Positions 8,054-35,765 of a stretch of 64,000 bases of DNA are shown one piece after another (positions within the stretch are counted from its first letter, which is position 1; each line of letters opens with the position of its first letter). The notes under the pieces are model-generated. The model ran no database searches, was not told the DNA's origin, and saw only the letters and a list, made by a program, of their open reading frames with translations. The position numbers and the translations under genes are program-made. The DNA lies in the IMG/VR virus record IMGVR_UViG_3300025362_000477; one strand, 5' to 3'. The DNA comes from a virus (taxonomy: Duplodnaviria > Caudoviricetes).

Positions 8054-9361
8054 CTATAAGTATTGTATGTATTTAGTAGTCCAAATAAAATTTGATAAAT
8101 CAGCAAGGTTAATTTCTAATTTAGCTTTCTGAATCATCAATTCATCTGTGTCCGTTTTAATCTTTAATATTCGACTCAATGTGTATTTATCAAACAATTC
8201 TTTAATTATTTTAGTTGGAATTTCAGTGTCCGTATGCAATCCCTCTATAACAATATCAGAATCATTAGGATTAGATCTCAACCATTTAGGAAGATGAACT
8301 TTCAATCTAGCAATTAAAGCTAATTCATCTATATGGTCTTGTAATTTCTTAATATTAGATCTTAAAACAACCTCCACGATCTCTTTATAATTGTTATATA
8401 CATTCAATAACATATTATCAATTGAGGACAAAACTACATTACCTTCTAAATCACACATATTACACTCAAAAGTATATGATCCTGTTAAATTAGCATTTAT
8501 TTTTTTAGCCAAATTATCTAATGTGAGAGATCTCTTCAAACTAACAAATCGAACTGATGTTTCACTTGATGATTCATCAATAAACCCAATGGTCTTATTA
8601 ACTTGAATATCTTTTTCTAATTTTTTTAAAATAGTAATAAAACTTTTACTTGGCGGTATTGCAGTAACGACGATACTTTTTGATGTATAATCAATTGTTG
8701 CCACTCCTCGATAATCTATTTTAGCTTTTCCAGTTGTTAGCAATTCTTGAAAATCAACCTTCTTGCTAATATAAGTACAATCAGTAATCGGTTTAATAAC
8801 TGGTTCCTTTTCAGTGTAACCAAGAAGCCAACTCAGACGTTTTACCAAATCCCGAATTGAATATGATGGGATTATTGTTCTACTACCAAAACCAATTCCT
8901 TGGCAATAATTCTTATTGATGAGGCATAGTGGTAATTTAGTAGGAAGAAATAGAGGTTCTTCATCTAATTCTAATTTTTCTTTCTTGACATATTTTATAT
9001 ACTCGAATGCCATATCCAATATGGACTTATCACAACGAGCTTCAGTATATCGCATAGCTGCTTGAGATTCTGATACTATTCCACTACTACATCCCCAGTT
9101 ACCTTGACCCATAGCCATATCACCATTAACTAATGCAGCAAGTGAACCATAAGCACTCTGATCTCCATGAGGGTGATAGTTACCAATACAATGACCAATA
9201 ACTTTAGCTGATTTTGTATAATTCTCCCTTGCAACTTCATAAAGAGAATATAATAATCTTCTCTCTACTATTTTCAATCCATCATATGTCAAAGGGAAAG
9301 CTCGAAATTTATTTACATATTTACCATATACTCGGTATAAATCAGATATCTGTTCCTTCAT
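8054..9361 (-). CDS. gyrA: Type IIA topoisomerase subunit A (short, no C-terminal pinwheel; T4 gp52-like)
   Basis: GLKIVERR, YHPHGDQS and AAMRYTEAR (catalytic Tyr) motifs; only 435 aa. Confidence 0.93.
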   Translation of the reverse strand: MKEQISDLYRVYGKYVNKFRAFPLTYDGLKIVERRLLYSLYEVARENYTKSAKVIGHCIGNYHPHGDQSAYGSLAALVNGDMAMGQGNWGCSSGIVSESQAAMRYTEARCDKSILDMAFEYIKYVKKEKLELDEEPLFLPTKLPLCLINKNYCQGIGFGSRTIIPSYSIRDLVKRLSWLLGYTEKEPVIKPITDCTYISKKVDFQELLTTGKAKIDYRGVATIDYTSKSIVVTAIPPSKSFITILKKLEKDIQVNKTIGFIDESSSETSVRFVSLKRSLTLDNLAKKINANLTGSYTFECNMCDLEGNVVLSSIDNMLLNVYNNYKEIVEVVLRSNIKKLQDHIDELALIARLKVHLPKWLRSNPNDSDIVIEGLHTDTEIPTKIIKELFDKYTLSRILKIKTDTDELMIQKAKLEINLADLSNFIWTTKYIQYL

Positions 9362-9440: not shown

Positions 9441-10289
9441 CTAAAAAAGACTTCTTAAATAATTTCGAATAAAAGCAGGTTTTGGTTTATCTTTTGATAA
9501 TTTACTAATCTCATTCTGTATATTATCACTATCACTATTAGCAGATTTTAATATTTTTATTTCAATATGTTCAAATGCCCCAGGATTCTTTACTTCTTGT
9601 TTAGCAATTTCAAGAGCTATTTTTGATTTCTCTTGTTTCTTAATATATTTATTTATTTTATATAAAGCACTCTCATAATCATCCCAATAACCATACTGGA
9701 TTGCTAAATCTGAATATGACCATTTATATAACCCCTTATATGGATTACCGATGACATCAACATATAATATATAAGTTAATAAATAAACACGACTCATTGT
9801 CTTCCAATCAGATACAACTCCTCTTTTCTTAAGTAATTTTCCAAAAATACAAAATAATCTTTTTAATTCTTTTGGGTTCTTTGGGTTCTTTGTAAAATGA
9901 TCATATAAGATTTTTATTTTCTCTTCGCCATGACCAATTTCATGAAGTAATAAACCAATCAATTCTTCTCGATTTAATAATTTTATAACCCCCTGAGAAA
10001 TCCATAAAACCTTTTTAGCATTAAATGAGAATACTCTATTATCAAAAAGAACTCGAACAGTCATATTTTCACCAACTATCGATGATATTTCTCTTGATAG
10101 ATCACGATCAATATTTGACTTTTTAATCATTGAATTGACTGATGCTTTTATAGTTGCCATCAGTATCACCTCAACAACAGTACTAGCTATCACATCCCGA
10201 GGTCTGGTCATATTATCCCATTCAAACTCATACAATATAGAATTCACAGATTTAGAAATTACATTTCTCCCAAGAATTCTATCTGACAT
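9441..10289 (-). CDS. M48/zincin-like metalloprotease, paralog 2
   Basis: LNREELIGLLLHEIGH motif; downstream motifs are degenerate. Confidence 0.6.
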   Translation of the reverse strand: MSDRILGRNVISKSVNSILYEFEWDNMTRPRDVIASTVVEVILMATIKASVNSMIKKSNIDRDLSREISSIVGENMTVRVLFDNRVFSFNAKKVLWISQGVIKLLNREELIGLLLHEIGHGEEKIKILYDHFTKNPKNPKELKRLFCIFGKLLKKRGVVSDWKTMSRVYLLTYILYVDVIGNPYKGLYKWSYSDLAIQYGYWDDYESALYKINKYIKKQEKSKIALEIAKQEVKNPGAFEHIEIKILKSANSDSDNIQNEISKLSKDKPKPAFIRNYLRSLF

Positions 10290-10370: not shown

Positions 10371-11270
10371 TTATCCAGATCTGGAATCGATGTGTTTATC
10401 GGCCCTTTTCCTGAATTCTTCATTATTTCTGTATTCATTTGCTTGCCTAATTCTGTTATTCATAGATGGATAAGATCCATTTCCATGACTCTCATCTTCA
10501 ATTCTATTATGATATTCAATTGCACGTTTAGTAGCTTCATCAGATTTTTGAATCCACCAATTCGCTACACTTTTATCTCGAACCTTACTCATTTTCCGAA
10601 AAGCATTACTTAATTGTAAACCAAATCCTGCTTTAATAGAAAATAAATCACTATCATATTCTTCATACCTTTGTAAGTAAATACCAAGCGCAGTTAAAAA
10701 ATAAGCTATAGTATATGGTCGACCTTCTCGTTCATAGAATTCTCTCATCTGAAAAGGAATAGATTGAGCTGTATGATGCCAATGACCAATCTCATGTAAA
10801 TAAACAGCAAGACGCTCTTCTGGTTCTAATTCAGTTAATGCACCTTTAGATACGAATATAATAAATTTACATTTGTTAGCTGGAAAAATAGCAGTATTCG
10901 GTCTTGGTCCCGGTTTAACACCACCAATATTCAATTTCATTAAAGCAGGTATACTATAAGAAACCCAATATGCCCATCCATACATATCCATTCGTTTTTT
11001 ATCACTCATACTTTGAATGCCAGGCATTGTAAATATATCAATTTCCCAACTTGAACTTAAACGAACCTCAACATCAATATTCTTAAATGATTTTTTTATC
11101 AGCTTTTCTTCAGATGGAAATCGAGGACATTTTTCAAGGAAGATAATTTCTTTCTTACCTTTCATGTGATTCTTTAAAGTCTTCCACCAACTTTTATATT
11201 CAGCTTCAAATTCAAGGAATTCTCCCCTCGATTCATTTAATAAATTATTGATAATCTGAAATCCGTCCAT
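10371..11270 (-). CDS. M48 (HtpX-like) zinc metalloprotease, paralog 1
   Basis: LEPEERLAVYLHEIGH, EYDSD and SYPSMNNRI motifs. Confidence 0.75.
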   Translation of the reverse strand: MDGFQIINNLLNESRGEFLEFEAEYKSWWKTLKNHMKGKKEIIFLEKCPRFPSEEKLIKKSFKNIDVEVRLSSSWEIDIFTMPGIQSMSDKKRMDMYGWAYWVSYSIPALMKLNIGGVKPGPRPNTAIFPANKCKFIIFVSKGALTELEPEERLAVYLHEIGHWHHTAQSIPFQMREFYEREGRPYTIAYFLTALGIYLQRYEEYDSDLFSIKAGFGLQLSNAFRKMSKVRDKSVANWWIQKSDEATKRAIEYHNRIEDESHGNGSYPSMNNRIRQANEYRNNEEFRKRADKHIDSRSG

Positions 11271-11303: not shown

Positions 11304-11762
11304 TTAAATAAGATCTCGTTTGAGTTCAGCACTTGTCATCAATTTAAAGATATCTCCTGGATTTGTAGGATATTTAATCAATTCCAATCTTCGTGTATCT
11401 TTATCTAAAAGACATACCTTTAATTGATCTGGATTCATTTCCCCCAACCCTTTATATCTCTGAATTTTCTGATTTGGATTAGTTATTTTAAATTTCTCAA
11501 GATCTTCATCTGTAAATAATGGTATAAACTTCTTCTTGACCGTCGCACCATACAATGGCATGATCGCTCTATATATATGTTTCTGTTCTCTGAGTAATGC
11601 CGGAACTAATTTCAAAGCCATAACCATTAACAATGCAGTAATATGACTATTATGTATAACACAACCAGAATTAGCCAAAACAAAATTACCAGTACCAGTT
11701 GTTAAATCACAAAATAATTCATCTTCATCAGATTTTCGTTCTATTATTATTTTAACTTTCAT
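11304..11762 (-). CDS. gyrB: Topoisomerase B C-terminal fragment preceded by a split-intein C half
   Basis: 38-aa IntC ending VIHN, then SHI...RYKGLGEMN; own AAAAGGA RBS. Confidence 0.92.
   Translation of the reverse strand: MKVKIIIERKSDEDELFCDLTTGTGNFVLANSGCVIHNSHITALLMVMALKLVPALLREQKHIYRAIMPLYGATVKKKFIPLFTDEDLEKFKITNPNQKIQRYKGLGEMNPDQLKVCLLDKDTRRLELIKYPTNPGDIFKLMTSAELKRDLI
11649..11762 (-). mobile_element. Split intein C-terminal half (IntC) of GyrB
   Basis: CDLTTGTGNFVLANSGCVIHN|S matches intein blocks F/G, with Ser at +1. Confidence 0.9.
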
Positions 11763-11763
11763 A

Positions 11764-13359
11764 TTAAATCCTTTTTATGCGATATCTTTTTCCAATAAAT
11801 ATTGGTTTTATTTTTGGATCCGGAACAAATTGTAATATCTTTCGTTTTAAATTCAAAATAATTAATTTTGGATCAATCATCCATTCATTCATTTTTATTC
11901 TTATAATATTCAATCCAAATTCATTATAATCTTTATTCTTCTTTATATCTCGATCACAATATGTTTCATAATTATCAGTAAAATGATAACGTTCATCAAA
12001 TTCAATTACTAAATTATATTCTTCTATATAACCATCTGGAAAATAACCAATACACATAGGATTTCTTAAAATAAATATATCTAATTCTTTAGACAATGTA
12101 TCCAAACATGGACGTTCCATATTCCCAACAAATGGTGTTACAGGTTCCCCATTTAATATCTGATCATCTATTCTTGCAATTAAAGTTTCTCGTAAAAATT
12201 TTCGACCTTCAAATGATTGAGACCAATATTCAACTCCATATTTTTTCAAACATGTAAATTTAGATTTTTCTTTAAATTCTTCACTTTGAAATATATTTTC
12301 AACACCATATTTTTTTAAATTATATTTTTTTAAATAAATTTTAAATTCAGAAGTCTCAAAAATATTAGTTACTCCATAATTAGACCAAAATGTTTCAATT
12401 TTCTTATCTTTAACTGAATCTAATTGAGAAACATTTTGTACTCCAAGACTTCGACAAAAATGACCAAGACTCATATCTATAAAAGTATCACAATCACCAT
12501 AATGTTTTAATATAGATTCTAATTTTTTAATTTTCACATCATCTATCTGAGATATATTCTCTACTCCATATCGATCAATGCATGTGTTCATATGACGATC
12601 TTTAATATCATCATGTTGCATTGGATTATCAACACCATAATTCAATTGACATGTTTCAACTTTTTTATTTTTTACTGATTGTAATTGACTATAATTATCA
12701 ACACCATATAATCTTCGAGCTGATTTTTGAAACGTTTCACCTCTATATATTTCAGCGCATGAAAAACAATAATCATTAAAATAAATTTTCTTTTGTTTCA
12801 AAAACAAATCATAATTTATAGAAGCTTTAAACTTTCCACAATATTTACATATTGAAATTTGATTTAAATCTTCTTCATTTGTTATATATGAAAATAATGG
12901 AAGAATGTATTGTTCATTATAATTATAAAACAAAGGATGACTATTCTTCCACGTTTCTATTAATAAAGGAATTTCTGGTTTTTGAATGAATAAAAAATAA
13001 GTAGTTTTTTTAAATTCTTCAATACCATAAAATTCATCATATGATTGAAAGATATGATTGAATGGGAATTTTTTACATTTTCTATGTTTCATCCCATCAA
13101 TTTCATATTCTTTTTTCAAAGTGAATTTTTTAGGTTTATTACAATATGGACATAATTCAACATGATCAAGACAATGATATATCAAATATAATTTTTCATC
13201 TAAATCTCGACCAGTTGAATTATTATCATTTAACCAATTCTGAACGTCTACATCCTTCATTATAGTATGAACAGTAGCTAATAAACCTCGTTTCCTTTTA
13301 GATATGTATTGTTCATAAGTCTGAAAGAGTTTTTGAATTTTTAATGGTTTCGTTTGCAT
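11764..13359 (-). mobile_element. Homing endonuclease (YGVxN repeats plus Vsr/EDxHD-like domain) separating the gyrB halves
   Basis: Repeated C..KYGVEN.SQ units; C-terminal YFPDGYIEEYNLVIEFDERYH; own GGAG RBS; different frame from IntN. Confidence 0.8.
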
Positions 13360-13672
13360 CTATTATATTATCTCCATTATTTAATTCATCACATCGGATC
13401 CATCCTCTATTTTCAGTTAAAACTAGATGATCATGTGTTAATGTAAGAATAGAACCATCTTCCATTTCAACATCTAACCATTTTTTAAATATTTTATAAG
13501 GCCATATTTTTAAAATAGGAGTCCAAATATATTTCAAATCAATTTCATCATATCCTAAAATAAAAGAATCTTTAAATTGATCTACATTATCAATTATTTC
13601 TGAGAGATTAATCTTTTTAATTTGTTCTTTTTTAGTTTGAACATATACGAGTGTATGATTTCGAGGTACGCA
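13313..13672 (-). mobile_element. Split intein N-terminal half (IntN, 119 aa) of GyrB
   Basis: Starts CVPRNH (block A); LTLTHDHLV (block B TxxH); GWIRCDELNNGDNI end motif; then a stop codon. Confidence 0.9.
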
Positions 13673-15154
13673 ACCATCAGCATCAGCATCTGTAGCGAAC
13701 ATAATTTTTCCATACCTTAATGTTTCCAAATTAAAATCAGGTTCAATCCCAGTTCCTAAAGCATTAATAATTTCCACAATTTCCTTATTCTTAAGAAAAT
13801 CTTTTTTGGTCCCAGCCAAATTAGGAATCTTACCTTTCAAACCCAAAAGAGCATGAATCTTCGGATCTCTACATTGAACCAATCCCCCGGCAGCAGATGC
13901 TCCCTCAGTAATAAACAATTCACTTCTAGCAACATCATGTGAAGTACAATCTTTTAATTTTGAATCTATTATTTGATTAAATCTAGATACATTCTTACTA
14001 CCCTTTATAATATTTTTATTAACAGATAAACTTTTTCTATACCCTTCAAAAAAACCTAGAATCTGTGTTTTTACTGATGGATATTTATCAATCATAGCTT
14101 CAATTTGATCTTCTAAACCATTAAACAAATGATCCATTTTAGCTTTAGATGTAGATAATTTTTCTTTAGTCTGACTTGAATATTCAGGTGTGTATAACGA
14201 CACACTAGTAAATACTCGAAACCCAACCAAACAATCTTGAGGAGTAAAATTTAACTTTTCTTTTTTAGCATAAGCTGTAAATACATTTTTGAATGCAATA
14301 TACACTTTATTGATATGTGTTCCCTGATTCACAGGTAATATATTCACACTTCCTAAATGTCGTGGACTTGATGGTACTGAACAATCCCATGCAAACTTCA
14401 CTAATATTTCTTCATCTTTAACTTTAGTTTTAGCTATAAAGATAGGAGTAACATCCGTTGTTTTATTTTTCAATAATGTTCGTTTAAAGAAATCATCAAC
14501 GTTACAGTTAATTATCTCTTTCTCTCCATTATTCATTAAAATCAATTTTAATTTAGGAATATGTACAGATGCAATCTCCAACCTATCTCGAATAGGACCA
14601 ATATCCATATCAAGAGTTTCAAAATACTTCTGAGAAGGCTTAAATGAGATTTGACTTGAGAATGGTGGAATTTCTTTATAATCAGTAATCTCTTCTTTAG
14701 CTAGAACAGTGTTTTCAAATCTATAAAAAGCTCTTTTTTTATCTCTATACACTATGATCTCAACCCAATCACTTAGTGCAGTTACGGCTACTAGTCCAAT
14801 ACCATGTAGACCAGCAGCAATCCCATATGCGGACCCCTCAGACCCCTTTGAGAATTTACCACCACTAAATAACTTCGTTGCAATTGTCGGTATAACATTC
14901 CCAGTTATAGGAATACCCCGTCCATTATCAGAAACAGTAAAAACATGCTTAGCATTATCTACAAACACCCCTATCAAATCAGCATGACCAGCATTCGCTT
15001 CATCTAATGCATTATCAAATACTTCATAAATTAAATGGTTTGGAGTTTCAGTTTCTCCAACGTACATCGCTGGGTTTAATCGAAGGTGCTCAATCTCACT
15101 AAGAGTCTGTATTTGATTGTGGTCATAGTCCGATTTTTTGATGTCTTCTGTCAT
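13313..15154 (-). CDS. gyrB: Topoisomerase B N-terminal fragment fused to a split-intein N half
   Basis: EVFDNALDE, DNGRGIP, GLHGIG (GHKL ATPase), ITEGASA and LKGKIPN motifs; TDADADG is followed by the intein Cys1. Confidence 0.93.
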   Translation of the reverse strand: MTEDIKKSDYDHNQIQTLSEIEHLRLNPAMYVGETETPNHLIYEVFDNALDEANAGHADLIGVFVDNAKHVFTVSDNGRGIPITGNVIPTIATKLFSGGKFSKGSEGSAYGIAAGLHGIGLVAVTALSDWVEIIVYRDKKRAFYRFENTVLAKEEITDYKEIPPFSSQISFKPSQKYFETLDMDIGPIRDRLEIASVHIPKLKLILMNNGEKEIINCNVDDFFKRTLLKNKTTDVTPIFIAKTKVKDEEILVKFAWDCSVPSSPRHLGSVNILPVNQGTHINKVYIAFKNVFTAYAKKEKLNFTPQDCLVGFRVFTSVSLYTPEYSSQTKEKLSTSKAKMDHLFNGLEDQIEAMIDKYPSVKTQILGFFEGYRKSLSVNKNIIKGSKNVSRFNQIIDSKLKDCTSHDVARSELFITEGASAAGGLVQCRDPKIHALLGLKGKIPNLAGTKKDFLKNKEIVEIINALGTGIEPDFNLETLRYGKIMFATDADADGCVPRNHTLVYVQTKKEQIKKINLSEIIDNVDQFKDSFILGYDEIDLKYIWTPILKIWPYKIFKKWLDVEMEDGSILTLTHDHLVLTENRGWIRCDELNNGDNIIDANETIKNSKTLSDL

Positions 15155-16019
15155 ATTCAGTCCTTTTTATTATTTCTGATAATTCCTTCAAACTAGGAAT
15201 TCGATCTATAAATCTATATATGACCCACCCCATCTTAGTTAAATTCATATCTCTAATATCATCTAATTCTTTATTCTGATGCCAATAAGATCCGTCATAT
15301 TCCAAATTCAATTTCAATGAAGGGATAGCAATATCTAATAAAATATTCAATTCCCAAATGGGATGATTCATAACAGAATCATCTCGGATATCACAAACCA
15401 ATCCAAAGAATTCAATTTGAGGTTTAGATGGATTTTTATTACCAAGTAATGCTTTTATAGCACCACCCTCAAGCATATATTTTCTCTGATTCTCAGCTAA
15501 TTTTGGATTTTTTCGAAATGATTCTTTTACTTTTTTTGATAGATTTTTTCGATATACTGGATCTGATGTAGTTTCTTTAACTTTTTTTCTTATTAATTCA
15601 ATTAATTTCATATCGGTTTTCTGCGGAAGATACTTTATATAACATTTAGAACAATATTTTATACTATAATGAGATGTCTTGGATCCACAATCAAGACACT
15701 GTCCTTTATTATTAATTGTTCTCATGGGAAAATTATCTTCATCTCCATACTTATCAATATAATACCTATAACAATCAGGAGAATATCGATTCAAGTGCAT
15801 AGTTAAATTTTTAAATCTTCTCGAACAACACTCACATTGAATATGATTAATTCCTAATTTAGTCTTCGAATATTTCCTAGTTGGGAAATCACTCTCATGT
15901 TTATACTCATCAATATAATATTGATAACATTCTGATTTATGTTTTTTACCAGTCATCAAATGCATCTGTAATGCAAAATCTCTATGAAATTCTTTATGGC
16001 ATTTTTCACAACATATCAT
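15123..16019 (-). mobile_element. Putative free-standing homing endonuclease (Zn fingers plus Vsr/DUF559-like domain)
   Basis: C2H2-like fingers; SKPQIEF..LDIAIP..LEYDGSYWH..D..RD motif; overlaps the gyrB start. Confidence 0.72.
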
Positions 16020-16089: not shown

Positions 16090-16118
16090 CCCGTCTCACA
16101 TTCATAATGTGAGACGGG
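16090..16118 (-). terminator. Intrinsic terminator-like hairpin
   Basis: CCCGTCTCACATT/AATGTGAGACGGG 13-bp perfect stem followed by a T-rich tract on the minus strand. Confidence 0.75.
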
Positions 16119-17441: not shown

Positions 17442-18073
17442 TATTCTTCCTTTTTATTTAATACGAGTTGTCTAGATACAACCCCAGTAATATCCTTACC
17501 TATCCAAATCATAATTGTCCTTTCACCTTGAGTCCTAGTACAGAATTCAAAGTGATATCGAATCAATGAATGAATATTGTCATCATTTAATATTTTTTCT
17601 TGTGTTTTAAAATATCCTTCTTTTACCTTATTTGAGATCAATTTTGGACTTTTTAAAAGCGGTATATCAATGTATGGCATATACAAAACAATATATTCCA
17701 TCCATTCATCATATACAAAAAAGTGAATTAATTTAATAACTCCATCCAAATCATTCTCTAATATATTATCAGTATTAATATAATCTATCAAAATATCTAC
17801 AGGGTATATTTCCGCCAACCTATGCAAACATATCGTTAAAAATAACCTAGTATCATCAAGTTCTAATTCATTTAATATATCTTCCCAATAAAGATCAAAT
17901 TCTTGAAATCCTTTTATTTTACCAATAGCTTGTACTAATGCGTTTTTTCGATATTGTAAATACTGCTTTTCATTAACATCGCTCTGATCAGTTTCAGTTT
18001 CATCAAATGGTGAAACAATTTCTGATAACATTTTATCTAGACTGTCCATAATATTATACCTCTCATAATTCAA
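17441..18073 (-). CDS. Hypothetical protein
   Basis: ORF in the operon; no recognised motif. Confidence 0.65.
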   Translation of the reverse strand: MNYERYNIMDSLDKMLSEIVSPFDETETDQSDVNEKQYLQYRKNALVQAIGKIKGFQEFDLYWEDILNELELDDTRLFLTICLHRLAEIYPVDILIDYINTDNILENDLDGVIKLIHFFVYDEWMEYIVLYMPYIDIPLLKSPKLISNKVKEGYFKTQEKILNDDNIHSLIRYHFEFCTRTQGERTIMIWIGKDITGVVSRQLVLNKKEE

Positions 18074-19031
18074 TACTCTCTATTAATGATAAAAATCGAT
18101 TCTTTATTATTTCGGGATTTTCTTCCCATTCTAGTTGGGGAACACGAAAAATATTCAAATTATGTTTTGTGTAAGTTTGATCTTTTATATGATCATGGGT
18201 TTTATGCTTATCATGTTTATGCCATGGTTCATCAAACTCGATAACTAAACTCAATTCTTTAATATAACCATCTGGAAAAAATCCAAACATTCGATCTGGT
18301 CGAATAATTAAATAATCAGTATATAATTGTAACCATTTAAAGAATGATGGTTCATTCTTCCCAATATAAGGAGATAATGGTTCACCATTTGTTTTACATT
18401 CTTCTAAATAATCAATCATATTATTCCGAAATATCTCTCTACATTCCAGTGTTTGAGATATATTTTCAACACCATATTTCTCCAAACAAGTTTTTCTCTT
18501 TTTTTTATTCACTTGTTCCATCATTCCAGGAATCAACATAGGATGATCCACACCATAGTTTTTCATTAAGGTATTAACTTTTTTATCTTTCACTTCATCC
18601 AATTGAGATACATTTTCAACACCATATTTTTCTAAACATGTGTGTTTATATTTATCCCGTATATTCTTTGTCTGATAATGATGATCTACTCCATATCTTT
18701 CACGATAAGTAGAAATTTTCCTTTGTTGAATCACCGAACTTTTAGACGCATTATCCACTCCATAATTTTTCATCAAAGTTTCTTTTCTTTTTCTAATCGT
18801 GGATGGATTTAGATTAATACATGCCATAGAACATGATTGAGTATAACCATTAGTTAAACTAACAAACTTATTTGGATTTCCACATGCTCCACATATATCT
18901 TCACCTTCTTTTTTGAGATATTTATCATAATATTCTTTTAATGAAATATCATGTTCTTCATCATTCTTATTGTTTATATGATTGCCCAATGAATGACCTT
19001 TACACTCTTTTCCGCATATTTCACATTTCAT
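18063..19031 (-). mobile_element. Homing endonuclease, YGVxN-repeat/EDxHD-like family
   Basis: KCEICGK..H N-terminus, YGVDN repeats, FFPDGYIKELSLVIEFDEPWH; 2 nt downstream of rpoB. Confidence 0.78.
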
Positions 19032-32257: not shown

Positions 32258-33370
32258 TTAAAGGGACTTTAGATTAATTTCTAAAGTCCCTATTTTATGC
32301 GCAAATTCCTTGAATTTTTTTATACATTTTTCTTTATCATTAAACCAATCAACTTCCCAACATCGAAATATATGAAGATTATTTAAAAGATATGTATCAT
32401 TTTTAATTTTATCATGTTTTTGAGATGCGGTAGATTTATGGTGAGGTTCATCAAATTCAATAACAATCTTCAATTCCTTAATATAACCATCAGGAAATAA
32501 AGAATCTATCTTAGTATTATTATCAATAAAGTAATCAGTATGGTTTTGTAACTCAGAAATAAAAGATAATTCATTATTTCCTTTTCTCGGACTAAATTTT
32601 TCACCATCTTTCAATCCATCTTCAATTGCTTTAATCATCATTTCTCTAGATCTTTTCCTTGATTCCATAGTTTGAAAATAATATTCAACCCCATGATTTT
32701 TAAGTGTAGTCTTCTTTATTCGATCATAAATGATCTTTGATTGGGGAGGATATAATACTCCATAATGCTTCATACATGTTTTACTTTTCTGATCCTTAAT
32801 TTGAGGCACCTGGCTAATATTAGAGACATCATATTTTAATTGAATTGAAGATTTAGATTTAGATCTTATTATTTCAGATTGCATCGGATAATCAGTTCCA
32901 TGATGTTCAAAACAAGTTTCTCTTTGCTTTATTTTCACATTTTCAGATTGCATTGGATATGCAACTCCTCTGTTCTTAATATTAGTCTGTCTTTTGAGAG
33001 TTTGAATTTTTTTCGATTTAGATGGGTTATCCACCCCATAATGATTAATATAACTTTTAATCTTCTTGTCATTTAATTCCCGAGATTTAGAAGGATGATC
33101 TACTCCATAATTCATCATGCATGTATTTTTCTTTTTGATTTGAACCGCATCCGATGAATTCGAACATTTAGTTGAACAATACAATCTATAACCTTTATCA
33201 ATATTAATAAATTTACATTGATTCCCACATTCTATACATTTACCATTACGAGAATCATGAAGATAACAATCATAATATTGTTTGATAGTCATATCATGAA
33301 TATGACGCAAATGAGAAGATAGACGTTTAAATTTCTTATTGCATATTTGACATAATTTTAAAGGTTTCAT
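32258..33370 (-). mobile_element. Homing endonuclease, YGVxN-repeat/EDxHD-like family
   Basis: CQIC..HLRH, YGVDN repeats and LFPDGYIKELKIVIEFDEPHH. Confidence 0.78.
32262..32291. terminator. Convergent terminator-like hairpin
   Basis: AGGGACTTTAGA/TCTAAAGTCCCT 12-bp stem between convergent genes. Confidence 0.7.
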
Positions 33371-33458
33371 ATAATTTATTCTATTAATTTTTATAATGAT
33401 TATTAAAATCATAAGATTCTAATCCCGATTAAGGGAATAAAATAAAAAGGAGATTTAT

Positions 33459-34451: not shown

Positions 34452-34625
34452 AGATGACGTCTATATCTTTATAAAGAACCTAGTTATTTTGACATTAAAG
34501 TTGAGGTTTAGGTTCTTTAAAGTATAGTTTAATTCAAAAGATGAATAAATGTTTATTGTAAAGAGTAATTATATCATACGTTTTTTTTGATGGATGGAAT
34601 AAAGAATAAATTTAAAAGGAATATT

Positions 34626-35765
34626 ATGCTCAAATGTAAAATATGCAATTCTGAATTTGATAAGAGTTTTCATTTATCTATTCATATCAAACAGAAACAC
34701 AATATACCAATTAAAGACTATTATGATAAATACTATAAAACAGAAGATGAAGGTTTTTGTAAAACATGCAGAAAAACAACCAAATTTCAATGTATGACTA
34801 ATGGATATATTACATATTGTTGTAATAGATGTGCTGCGATGGATAAAGATTTACAAAAAATAAAAAAATCAAAAATGAAAGTTCATTATAGAAATGGATC
34901 TATCCAAAAGAAAACCAAAGAAACATGTAATGAACGGTATGGTGTAGATAATCCATCTCAATCTAAAAAAATAAAAAATAAAAAGAAACAAACATTCCGA
35001 CAAAATTATGGAGTTGATAATTGTTTTCAACATCCAAAAATTCAAGAAAAATCAAAAGAAACATGTTTAGAAAAATATGGCGTAGAATATTCAGGATCAT
35101 CACCAATCGTACAGAAAAAGAAAAAACAAACATGTTTAAAAAAATATGGAGTAGAACATTATTCTGAAACAGATGAATACAAAGAGAAAATCAAACATAC
35201 ATGTAATGAACGGTATGGTGTAGATAACGTATTTGAATTAGATGAAATTAAAAAAAAATCCAAAGAATCATGTCTTAAAAAATATGGTACGGAATTTGCC
35301 TCACAATCAATAATAGTAAAAGATAAATCAAAAGAAACATGCATGTTGAAATTTGGAGTTGATAATCATGCTAAGACTTACATAGCAAGATTGAAATCTA
35401 GAAACATGCTGATTGAACGAATTAAAAAAGAAAATGGAAATAAGATAAATCCGATGAGAGGTAGTGGTGAAAAACCATGCTTTGATGAATTAGAAAAACA
35501 TATCCCATTTAAAATCGATAGAGATTTTACTAAAATTGGTTACTTCCCAGATGGATTCATTCATGAACTTAATTTAGTGATTGAATTTGATGAACCTGAA
35601 CACCAGTCTAGAGAATGGTATAAGGAACATGATATGAGGCGGAATTCTGATTTTGAAAAAATTGGTTATGAAACCCATAGAATTAAAAAAATCAATTGGG
35701 ATGATGATCCCAATAAATGTATAAAGAAATTCAAAAATATAATAACAAAATTAGACGGAGAATGA
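34626..35765 (+). mobile_element. Homing endonuclease, YGVxN-repeat/EDxHD-like family
   Basis: KCKIC..HIKQKH, many YGVDN/YGVE repeats and YFPDGFIHELNLVIEFDEPEH; 4 nt upstream of tmk. Confidence 0.78.

Follow-up and report, generated by a model that had tools for sequence, protein, structure and literature searches.

The topoisomerase II large-subunit gene of a large salt-lake phage is very probably a fractured gene, in which a split intein accompanied by a Vsr-like endonuclease would join two separately encoded fragments by trans-splicing into a subunit of 608 amino acids (aa). We assign this reading a probability of about 85%. The locus lies in IMGVR_UViG_3300025362_000477, and the window is the whole stretch of 64,000 nucleotides (nt) that was analyzed. 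It consists of three consecutive minus-strand open reading frames (ORFs) in three different frames, which encode 613 aa (13313-15154), 531 aa (11764-13359) and 152 aa (11304-11762). The upstream frame (N-ORF) reaches ...FATDADADG and then continues with CVPRNH... for 119 aa, the N-terminal intein half (IntN), before a TGA stop. The downstream frame (C-ORF) opens with the 38-aa C-terminal half (IntC), MKVK...GCVIHN, and proceeds directly to SHITALL....

IntN and IntC are encoded by two distinct ORFs, the first with a stop and the second with a start of its own, and a free-standing homing endonuclease ORF lies between them on the same strand. The N-ORF overlaps the endonuclease ORF by 47 nt, and a single nucleotide separates the endonuclease TAA stop from the C-ORF ATG. 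An initial annotation made from the sequence had given the same intein lengths and junction residues (TDADADG/C and HN/SHI, with the slash marking the splice junction), and these are exact in the ORFs. It had also assigned a ribosome-binding site (RBS) both to the endonuclease gene, placed in another frame, and to a separately started C-ORF; both sites are present (Table 1).

Splice junction and intein halves

The two exteins complement each other in every protein family profile examined. The N-ORF matches the Pfam domains HATPase_c, DNA_gyraseB and Toprim, and the C-ORF matches DNA_gyraseB_C. Against PHROG 543 (topoisomerase II large subunit), the N-ORF covers positions 17-522 and the C-ORF positions 522-628, and in the NCBIfam gyrB/parE profiles the N-ORF extends to about position 508 and the C-ORF begins near position 500. 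Together they cover the Pfam, PHROG 543 and NCBIfam profiles end to end, from the GHKL ATPase through the transducer and TOPRIM (E...DxDxD) to the C-terminal tail. Conceptual splicing of N-ORF residues 1-494 to C-ORF residues 39-152 (114 aa) gives a protein of 608 aa, the approximate size foreseen in the initial annotation, and this product aligns without a gap at the junction to uninterrupted homologues of 601-613 aa (IMG/VR contigs L001-L004). The predicted junction peptide reads ...ATDADADGSHITALLMVMALK, with DADADG-SHI restored inside the TOPRIM Mg-binding motif DxDxDG. Both exteins are intact and keep all GHKL and TOPRIM motifs, and their ratio of nonsynonymous to synonymous differences (pN/pS) is 0.21-0.50 across lineages.

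The intein halves are likewise complementary. In the Pfam Intein_splicing model (155 positions), IntN matches positions 8-102 (E 1.9e-6) and IntC matches positions 122-155. A profile built from five IntN sequences finds the NrdJ-1 split intein first in the PDB (8ubs, E 2.3e-7), followed by the DnaX, DnaE and PolC inteins. The residues expected of a class 1 intein are all conserved: Cys1, the block B T/SxxH, the block F Asp, the terminal His-Asn and Ser+1. Cys1 directly follows TDADADG and is invariant, together with D81 and H82, in 5 homologues; it is also present in L079, P0007, P0008 and P0123. Block B is LTHDH in the window, and in one lineage its Thr is replaced by Ser. IntC blocks F and G read FCDLTT...VIHN/S, with F17, D19, H37, N38 and S39 (Ser+1) invariant.

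Docking of IntN plus 10 extein residues with IntC plus 10 extein residues predicts an interface of ~215 contacts that includes Gly-1/Cys1 and Ser+1. Its ipSAE score is 0.67, while the best control scores 0.00; the mark that it passes is also attained by 51 of 78 solved complexes and by 2 of 108 mismatched pairs. Because split-intein complexes have already been solved, this pass is a measure of likeness and not proof of binding.

Table 1. Features of the topoisomerase locus and two nearby genes in the window
Feature	Coordinates	Strand	Basis
N-extein, topoisomerase II large subunit residues 1-494: GHKL ATPase, transducer, TOPRIM to TDADADG	13673..15154	-	Pfam, PHROG 543, NCBIfam
IntN, 119 aa, Cys1, block B LTHDH, plus TGA stop (13313-13315)	13313..13672	-	Pfam Intein_splicing, NrdJ-1 profile match
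Endonuclease gene, 531 aa: Cys clusters, DUF7487 repeats, C-terminal Vsr-like (EDxHD-type) nuclease	11764..13359	-	Pfam, PHROG, Foldseek
GGAGA, Shine-Dalgarno-like, 11 nt before the endonuclease ATG (13357-13359), within the IntN coding region	13371..13375	-	Read from sequence
AAGGA, Shine-Dalgarno-like, 6 nt before the C-ORF ATG, within the last endonuclease codons	11769..11773	-	Read from sequence
IntC, 38 aa; block F FCDLTTGTGNFVLANS, block G CVIHN	11649..11762	-	Pfam Intein_splicing; likeness to P0123
C-extein, topoisomerase II large subunit residues 495-608 from Ser+1 (SHITALL...), plus stop	11304..11648	-	DNA_gyraseB_C, PHROG 543, NCBIfam
Second free-standing DUF559-type endonuclease gene, context and not part of the intein; overlaps the topoisomerase start by 32 nt	15123..16019	-	Pfam DUF559 E 2.9e-4
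Topoisomerase II medium subunit (GyrA-like, gp52-like), 435 aa, predicted partner of the spliced large subunit	8054..9361	-	Pfam DNA_topoisoIV E 3.5e-47

Recurrence, mobility and the middle gene

The initial annotation had raised the possibility that an indel joins the three ORFs, and none was found. Independently assembled contigs from three other salt-lake metagenome runs have 0 substitutions and 0 indels relative to the window across both ORF boundaries (13313-13359, covered by records 15 and 24, and 11760-11766, covered by records 5, 13 and 20); this support consists of contigs, not raw reads, at a low word depth of 2-6x. Recurrence of the layout is the stronger argument. The same three ORFs are present in relatives from unrelated projects (L006-L008, L009, L010/L011, L012, L077 and L079), which make up at least six further lineages of divergent metagenomic phages. 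Intein identity is 42-69% among the five lineages compared, and the overlap lengths vary from 32 to 47 nt on the N side and from 1 to 11 nt on the C side in four loci (L006, L009, L010 and L012). With such divergence and such differing overlaps, an assembly frameshift cannot explain the split, and a tripartite architecture shared by divergent relatives is no chance pattern. None of 50,697 phage records matches the locus by megablast, and tblastn identities in that set, which contains no annotated close relative, do not exceed 33%.

The relatives include further states of the site. It is empty, lacking the intein, in L001-L005. A profile search of 1.84 billion representatives recovered a phage topoisomerase large subunit (P0123/L076) with a contiguous 140-aa mini-intein at exactly the same position and no endonuclease. 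This mini-intein is homologous to the split intein in both of its parts (IntN, E 5e-11; IntC, 73% identity over 22 aa, E 1e-10). In P0009/L079 the same split intein is accompanied by an extra, contiguous 411-aa HNH intein in the GHKL ATPase domain (L079:1226-4270, site AYKIA/C...VVHN/SGIHGVG). P0008/L077 is a middle topoisomerase fragment (L077:453-1127). It starts with an IntC, placed after the EG.SA motif, and closes with the same-site IntN, such that this gene is fractured twice. The clade is unusually complete in holding an empty site, a cis mini-intein, an endonuclease-invaded split form and a doubly fractured form, which correspond to stages of the proposed gene-breaking pathway for the origin of split inteins.

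Several signatures of mobility accompany this distribution. The extein tree interleaves fractured and intact alleles, grouping L006 with L002 (100% support), L012 with L001 (98%) and L079 with L004 (80%). Approximately unbiased (AU) tests that compare the intein-plus-endonuclease tree with the extein tree reject congruence in both directions (p = 0.0009 and p = 0.0004). The Ser+1 codon is AGT in all seven intein-bearing alleles, and at this position intein-less alleles encode either Ala (GCT or GCA) or Ser (TCT). AGT and TCT are members of separate, unconnected families of serine codons, and the +1 codon therefore appears to move together with the cassette; this pattern would fit co-conversion during homing. 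Together with the tree incongruence, the cassette-linked AGT codon suggests homing. In every pair, IntN, IntC and the endonuclease have a pN/pS ratio below 1, which is all that can be stated, since near-saturated synonymous sites and the more AT-rich composition of the cassette make dN/dS and pS comparisons weak. Although pS is lower in the cassette than in the exteins, this may be a composition effect and was set aside as a sign of recent transfer.

Along the 531-aa product of the middle gene, N-terminal Cys clusters are followed by DUF7487 helical repeats (YGVxNxSQxxxVKxKK) and a C-terminal nuclease domain. Pfam assigns DUF7487 with E 1.8e-27 and MTES_1575/DUF559 weakly, and the protein also matches PHROG homing endonuclease families. 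Comparison of its profile with the PDB gave only weak sequence matches (3hrl, E 0.016), and a fold search was therefore needed. In the AlphaFold2 model the nuclease domain has a predicted local distance difference test score (pLDDT) of 80-93. The closest Foldseek matches (TM-score by target) are the catalytic domain of I-Bth0305I (3r3p, 0.80) and the DUF559 protein 3hrl (0.79); E. coli Vsr is also matched (1vsr, 0.45; 1cw0, 0.52). Residues D442, E453, D455, E456 and H459 (IEFDExxH) form an acidic/His motif that is invariant in 9 homologues. On the basis of the predicted fold, the middle gene is a Vsr-like (EDxHD-type) homing endonuclease resembling I-Bth0305I, in agreement with the assignment of the locus to the fractured-gene class in the initial annotation. 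Mitoribosomal helical-repeat proteins, the top Foldseek matches of the whole model, reflect the DUF7487 repeats, and no homology to them is claimed. The endonuclease in the window also has an extra 23-aa DUF7487 repeat (KKYGVENIFQSEEFKEKSKFTCL) at 12154-12330 (residues ~345-370) that is missing in its four closest homologues.

Proposed pathway and competing explanations

The arrangement probably arose from an ancestral mini-intein in the topoisomerase II large-subunit gene, located exactly after the TOPRIM DxDxDG. A free-standing gene for a Vsr-like (EDxHD-type) endonuclease would then have invaded the central intein loop. With this gene the upstream half would have gained its stop, and the downstream half its RBS and ATG. 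A single operon transcript is most likely. There is no terminator-like site inside the locus; the sole hairpin of this kind precedes the operon, at 16090-16118. A scan for sigma-70 promoters found fewer sites than in shuffled sequences and is therefore uninformative in DNA this rich in AT. Three proteins would be translated from this transcript, and the 613-aa and 152-aa topoisomerase fragments would associate as IntN and IntC fold into one HINT domain. Trans-splicing would proceed through an N-S acyl shift at Cys1, transesterification to Ser+1, cyclization of Asn38 and an O-N shift. The resulting 608-aa product would have DADADG-SHI restored in the TOPRIM metal site and would pair with the GyrA-like 435-aa subunit. 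The endonuclease most likely acts on co-infecting relatives with intein-less alleles, cutting the conserved DNA there, and recombinational repair would copy the whole cassette into the break. In intein-less alleles of the L002 or L001 type, the DNA around the insertion point is GATGCTGATGCWGATGGT/KCTCATAT.

A number of observations count against this account. Splicing and endonuclease activity are both inferred from sequence and models, and the public runs that contain the locus are all DNA runs, with no RNA runs among them. The Pfam Intein_splicing score of 28 bits is below the curated cut-off of 35.8, and the NCBIfam intein_Nterm score is 22.6 against a cut-off of 24.5 bits. The docking pass may reflect the memory of the model for solved split inteins. 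The incongruence of the cassette tree depends partly on two long branches, L012 and L079, and the saturation and base composition noted above affect the substitution comparisons. Finally, the T4 topoisomerase large subunit is split nearby and can work without covalent joining.

This last point leads to an alternative in which the halves no longer splice and remain only as a non-covalent dimerization module, comparable to T4 gp39/gp60 or to the split NrdA of Aeh1, both of which assemble without ligation. T4 topoisomerase II does work with its large subunit divided 46 codons upstream and no intein, and the predicted docking speaks for association rather than for chemistry. However, Cys1, the block B His, the terminal His-Asn and Ser+1, which matter for the chemistry only, are invariant across inteins of six lineages that are just 42-69% identical. 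The Ser+1 codon also travels with the cassette while intein-less alleles tolerate Ala, and an unexcised HINT domain of 157 aa would stay inside the TOPRIM metal site. We consider loss of splicing unlikely. Decay of the locus is still harder to reconcile with the data and appears very improbable. In this case, invasion by the endonuclease would have inactivated a dispensable large subunit, and the phage would rely on host gyrase or topoisomerase IV. T4 topoisomerase mutants are viable with delayed DNA synthesis, and the phage genome is riddled with homing endonucleases, but the intact exteins with their retained motifs and low pN/pS, the retention of the medium-subunit gene, and the persistence of the arrangement through more than 40% protein divergence all speak against decay.

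An assembly or sequencing artefact, in which false frameshifts break a contiguous intein with an in-frame endonuclease, is effectively refuted. The sequence is metagenome-derived and AT-rich with homopolymer runs, and depth in the independent runs is low. Yet the three ORFs occupy three frames, the endonuclease keeps its own conserved N-terminus, start codon and RBS, and the layout recurs with different overlap lengths in divergent assemblies from different projects, in addition to being free of indels at both boundaries in the three other runs. What the sequence comparisons support is that a clade of large environmental phages has, in its topoisomerase II large-subunit gene, a natural split intein that is genuine and recurrent and that comes with a Vsr-like homing endonuclease.

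Related elements at the TOPRIM site and genomic setting

Fractured genes with split inteins and Vsr-like endonucleases were described by Dassa, London, Stoddard, Schueler-Furman and Pietrokovski in 2009 (PMC2677866) for gp41, DnaE-2, NrdA-2, NrdJ-1, IMPDH-1, TerL and others. The locus in the window shares with them the order of N-extein with IntN, free-standing same-strand endonuclease ORF, and IntC with C-extein, as well as the phage setting, the Vsr-like endonuclease and the placement of the start signals for the downstream half inside the 3' end of the endonuclease gene; NrdJ-1, one of their examples, is the closest solved intein. It differs in that the endonuclease is much larger, with its DUF7487 helical-repeat DNA-binding region, and overlaps the upstream IntN ORF rather than the downstream ORF. 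The host protein is also new, as the words 'topoisomerase' and 'gyrase' are absent from the text of that paper. No account of a split intein in a B-type topoisomerase subunit turned up in full-text literature searches for topoisomerase and gyrase, which did not extend to InBase, and literature on catalogued GyrB or topoisomerase intein insertion sites yielded no site-level information. The catalytic domain of I-Bth0305I, which is encoded by a recA intron of a Bacillus phage, matches the nuclease domain of the window endonuclease in fold, and an acidic/His motif is conserved as well, but the two share only ~15% sequence identity, I-Bth0305I is not associated with an intein, and its DNA-binding region is different.

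The insertion site, by contrast with the host protein, is not new to inteins. When 185,579 species genomes were scanned with degenerate codons for TDADVDG-Cys, bacterial GyrB genes (Campylobacterota, Thiovulum, Desulfobacteria) emerged that carry contiguous inteins of 142-373 aa at TDADVDG/C...HN/SHI; one of these genes was confirmed as GyrB by Pfam. The insertion point in the homologous TOPRIM motif is identical, and the inteins occur as mini forms of 142-151 aa and as forms of 260-373 aa with an endonuclease; their spread of sizes among species suggests that the endonuclease domain has been gained or lost. Unlike the phage intein, they are each contained in one ORF, that of a cellular gyrase, and splice in cis, and they have no detectable sequence similarity to it (E 1.2), for which reason they were rejected as its ancestor. 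Some Campylobacterota GyrB genes (L018, L035, L039, L063 and others) contain two contiguous TOPRIM inteins, with one ending ...VHN/SAKQGRD (an EGD/SA site) and the other at TDADVDG/C...HN/SHI.

The T4 MobA cassette and the accompanying split of genes 39 and 60 are said to have been described by Bonocora et al. in 2011. In T4 the same host gene and domain (topoisomerase II large subunit, TOPRIM) are broken by a homing endonuclease. As the initial annotation noted, no intein is involved; the endonuclease is the HNH protein MobA, and the protein break is healed non-covalently. The gp39/gp60 break itself is 46 codons upstream of the intein site, yet the 50-nt coding gap of gene 60 directly follows Gly46 of TDADHDG, the same codon boundary at which the intein follows TDADADG. 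Ribosomes skip this insert at the DxDxDG site; it is not spliced out of the protein. The window has a Vsr-like endonuclease in place of HNH MobA, and an intein where T4 has the 50-nt gap with its take-off and landing GGA. The split of genes 39 and 60, the 50-nt translational bypass and the MobA cassette are treated in PMC2988022 and in a preprint (bioRxiv 10.1101/2022.08.31.505936), which states that the gene 60 gap disrupts the MobA recognition site. One sentence of the same preprint describes ORF1 of a metagenomic phage Topo2L, 'MGS5', as split by a homing intein in which Hint and HintC enclose a VSR endonuclease. This is likewise a phage topoisomerase II large subunit interrupted by Hint, a VSR endonuclease and HintC. 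Its position in ORF1 upstream of the MobA insertion apparently places it at another site, and the passage does not state whether the intein is split or contiguous. Thus, of the novelty proposed in the initial annotation, the trans-splicing pair stands within the literature that could be searched, with the MGS5 sentence as a qualification, and the claim of a new site does not, given the bacterial GyrB inteins and the T4 gap at the same codon boundary.

Three types of element, then, are found at one TOPRIM position: cis inteins, a split intein and the T4 bypass gap. It is conceivable, at somewhat less than even odds in our estimate, that the codon boundary after the DxDxDG glycine is a convergent hotspot for unrelated selfish elements, each with a different means of repairing the host gene. 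These means would be cis-splicing for bacterial GyrB, a split intein accompanied by a Vsr-like endonuclease for the jumbo phages of this clade, and a ribosome-bypassed 50-nt gap for T4 with MobA. If so, the T4 bypass and inteins would be interchangeable ways to disrupt an endonuclease target inside an indispensable motif, and the phage clade would offer natural intein, empty and cis alleles for testing. The coincidence with the gene 60 gap in any case links two famous oddities of phage topoisomerase genes. Should trans-splicing take place as proposed, a type IIA topoisomerase would join the short list of enzymes assembled in this way in nature, and the intein pair (119/38 aa; Gly-1, Ser+1) is a candidate orthogonal tool for protein ligation.

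Other intein sites were observed in phage GyrB-like genes. An IntC ending ...SHN/SLVQCRDP and an IntN following EGDSAGG/C (P0064) point to a split-intein site at the EG.SA motif, and a site of this type is seen in P0064, P0008 and L018. Another IntN follows LRGKIQN/C in P0119. The best non-topoisomerase match of the IntN profile (E 1.7e-25) is P0006, a metagenomic protein of 403 aa that contains a complete mini-intein and, at its C-terminal end, an additional, nearly identical IntN. Its gene is apparently fractured too, with a closely related intein in a host protein other than topoisomerase.

The large- and medium-subunit topoisomerase genes are adjacent or nearly so in all relatives examined. 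In the window, two ORFs with one HEIGH motif each (9441-10289 and 10371-11270, minus strand) lie between the C-ORF and the medium-subunit gene, and the product of the second is weakly similar to M48 peptidases. The genome is heavily colonized by endonuclease genes. The window contains four paralogous genes for DUF7487 plus Vsr-like endonucleases, at 11764-13359, 18063-19031 and 32258-33412 on the minus strand and at 34587-35765 on the plus strand, and these share identical DNA stretches of 26-60 nt. Further endonucleases are of the NUMOD3 type (24-1043) and the DUF559 type (15123-16019, minus strand), the latter combined with a Zn-finger and located directly upstream of the topoisomerase large-subunit gene in the window. 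ORFs of similar appearance to this last gene, with an MKC..C..C N-terminus and like size, occur upstream of the topoisomerase large-subunit gene in L003 (4964-5998) and L006 (3976-5004), and another, judged by the same outward likeness, lies between the large- and medium-subunit genes in L002 (4400-5428).

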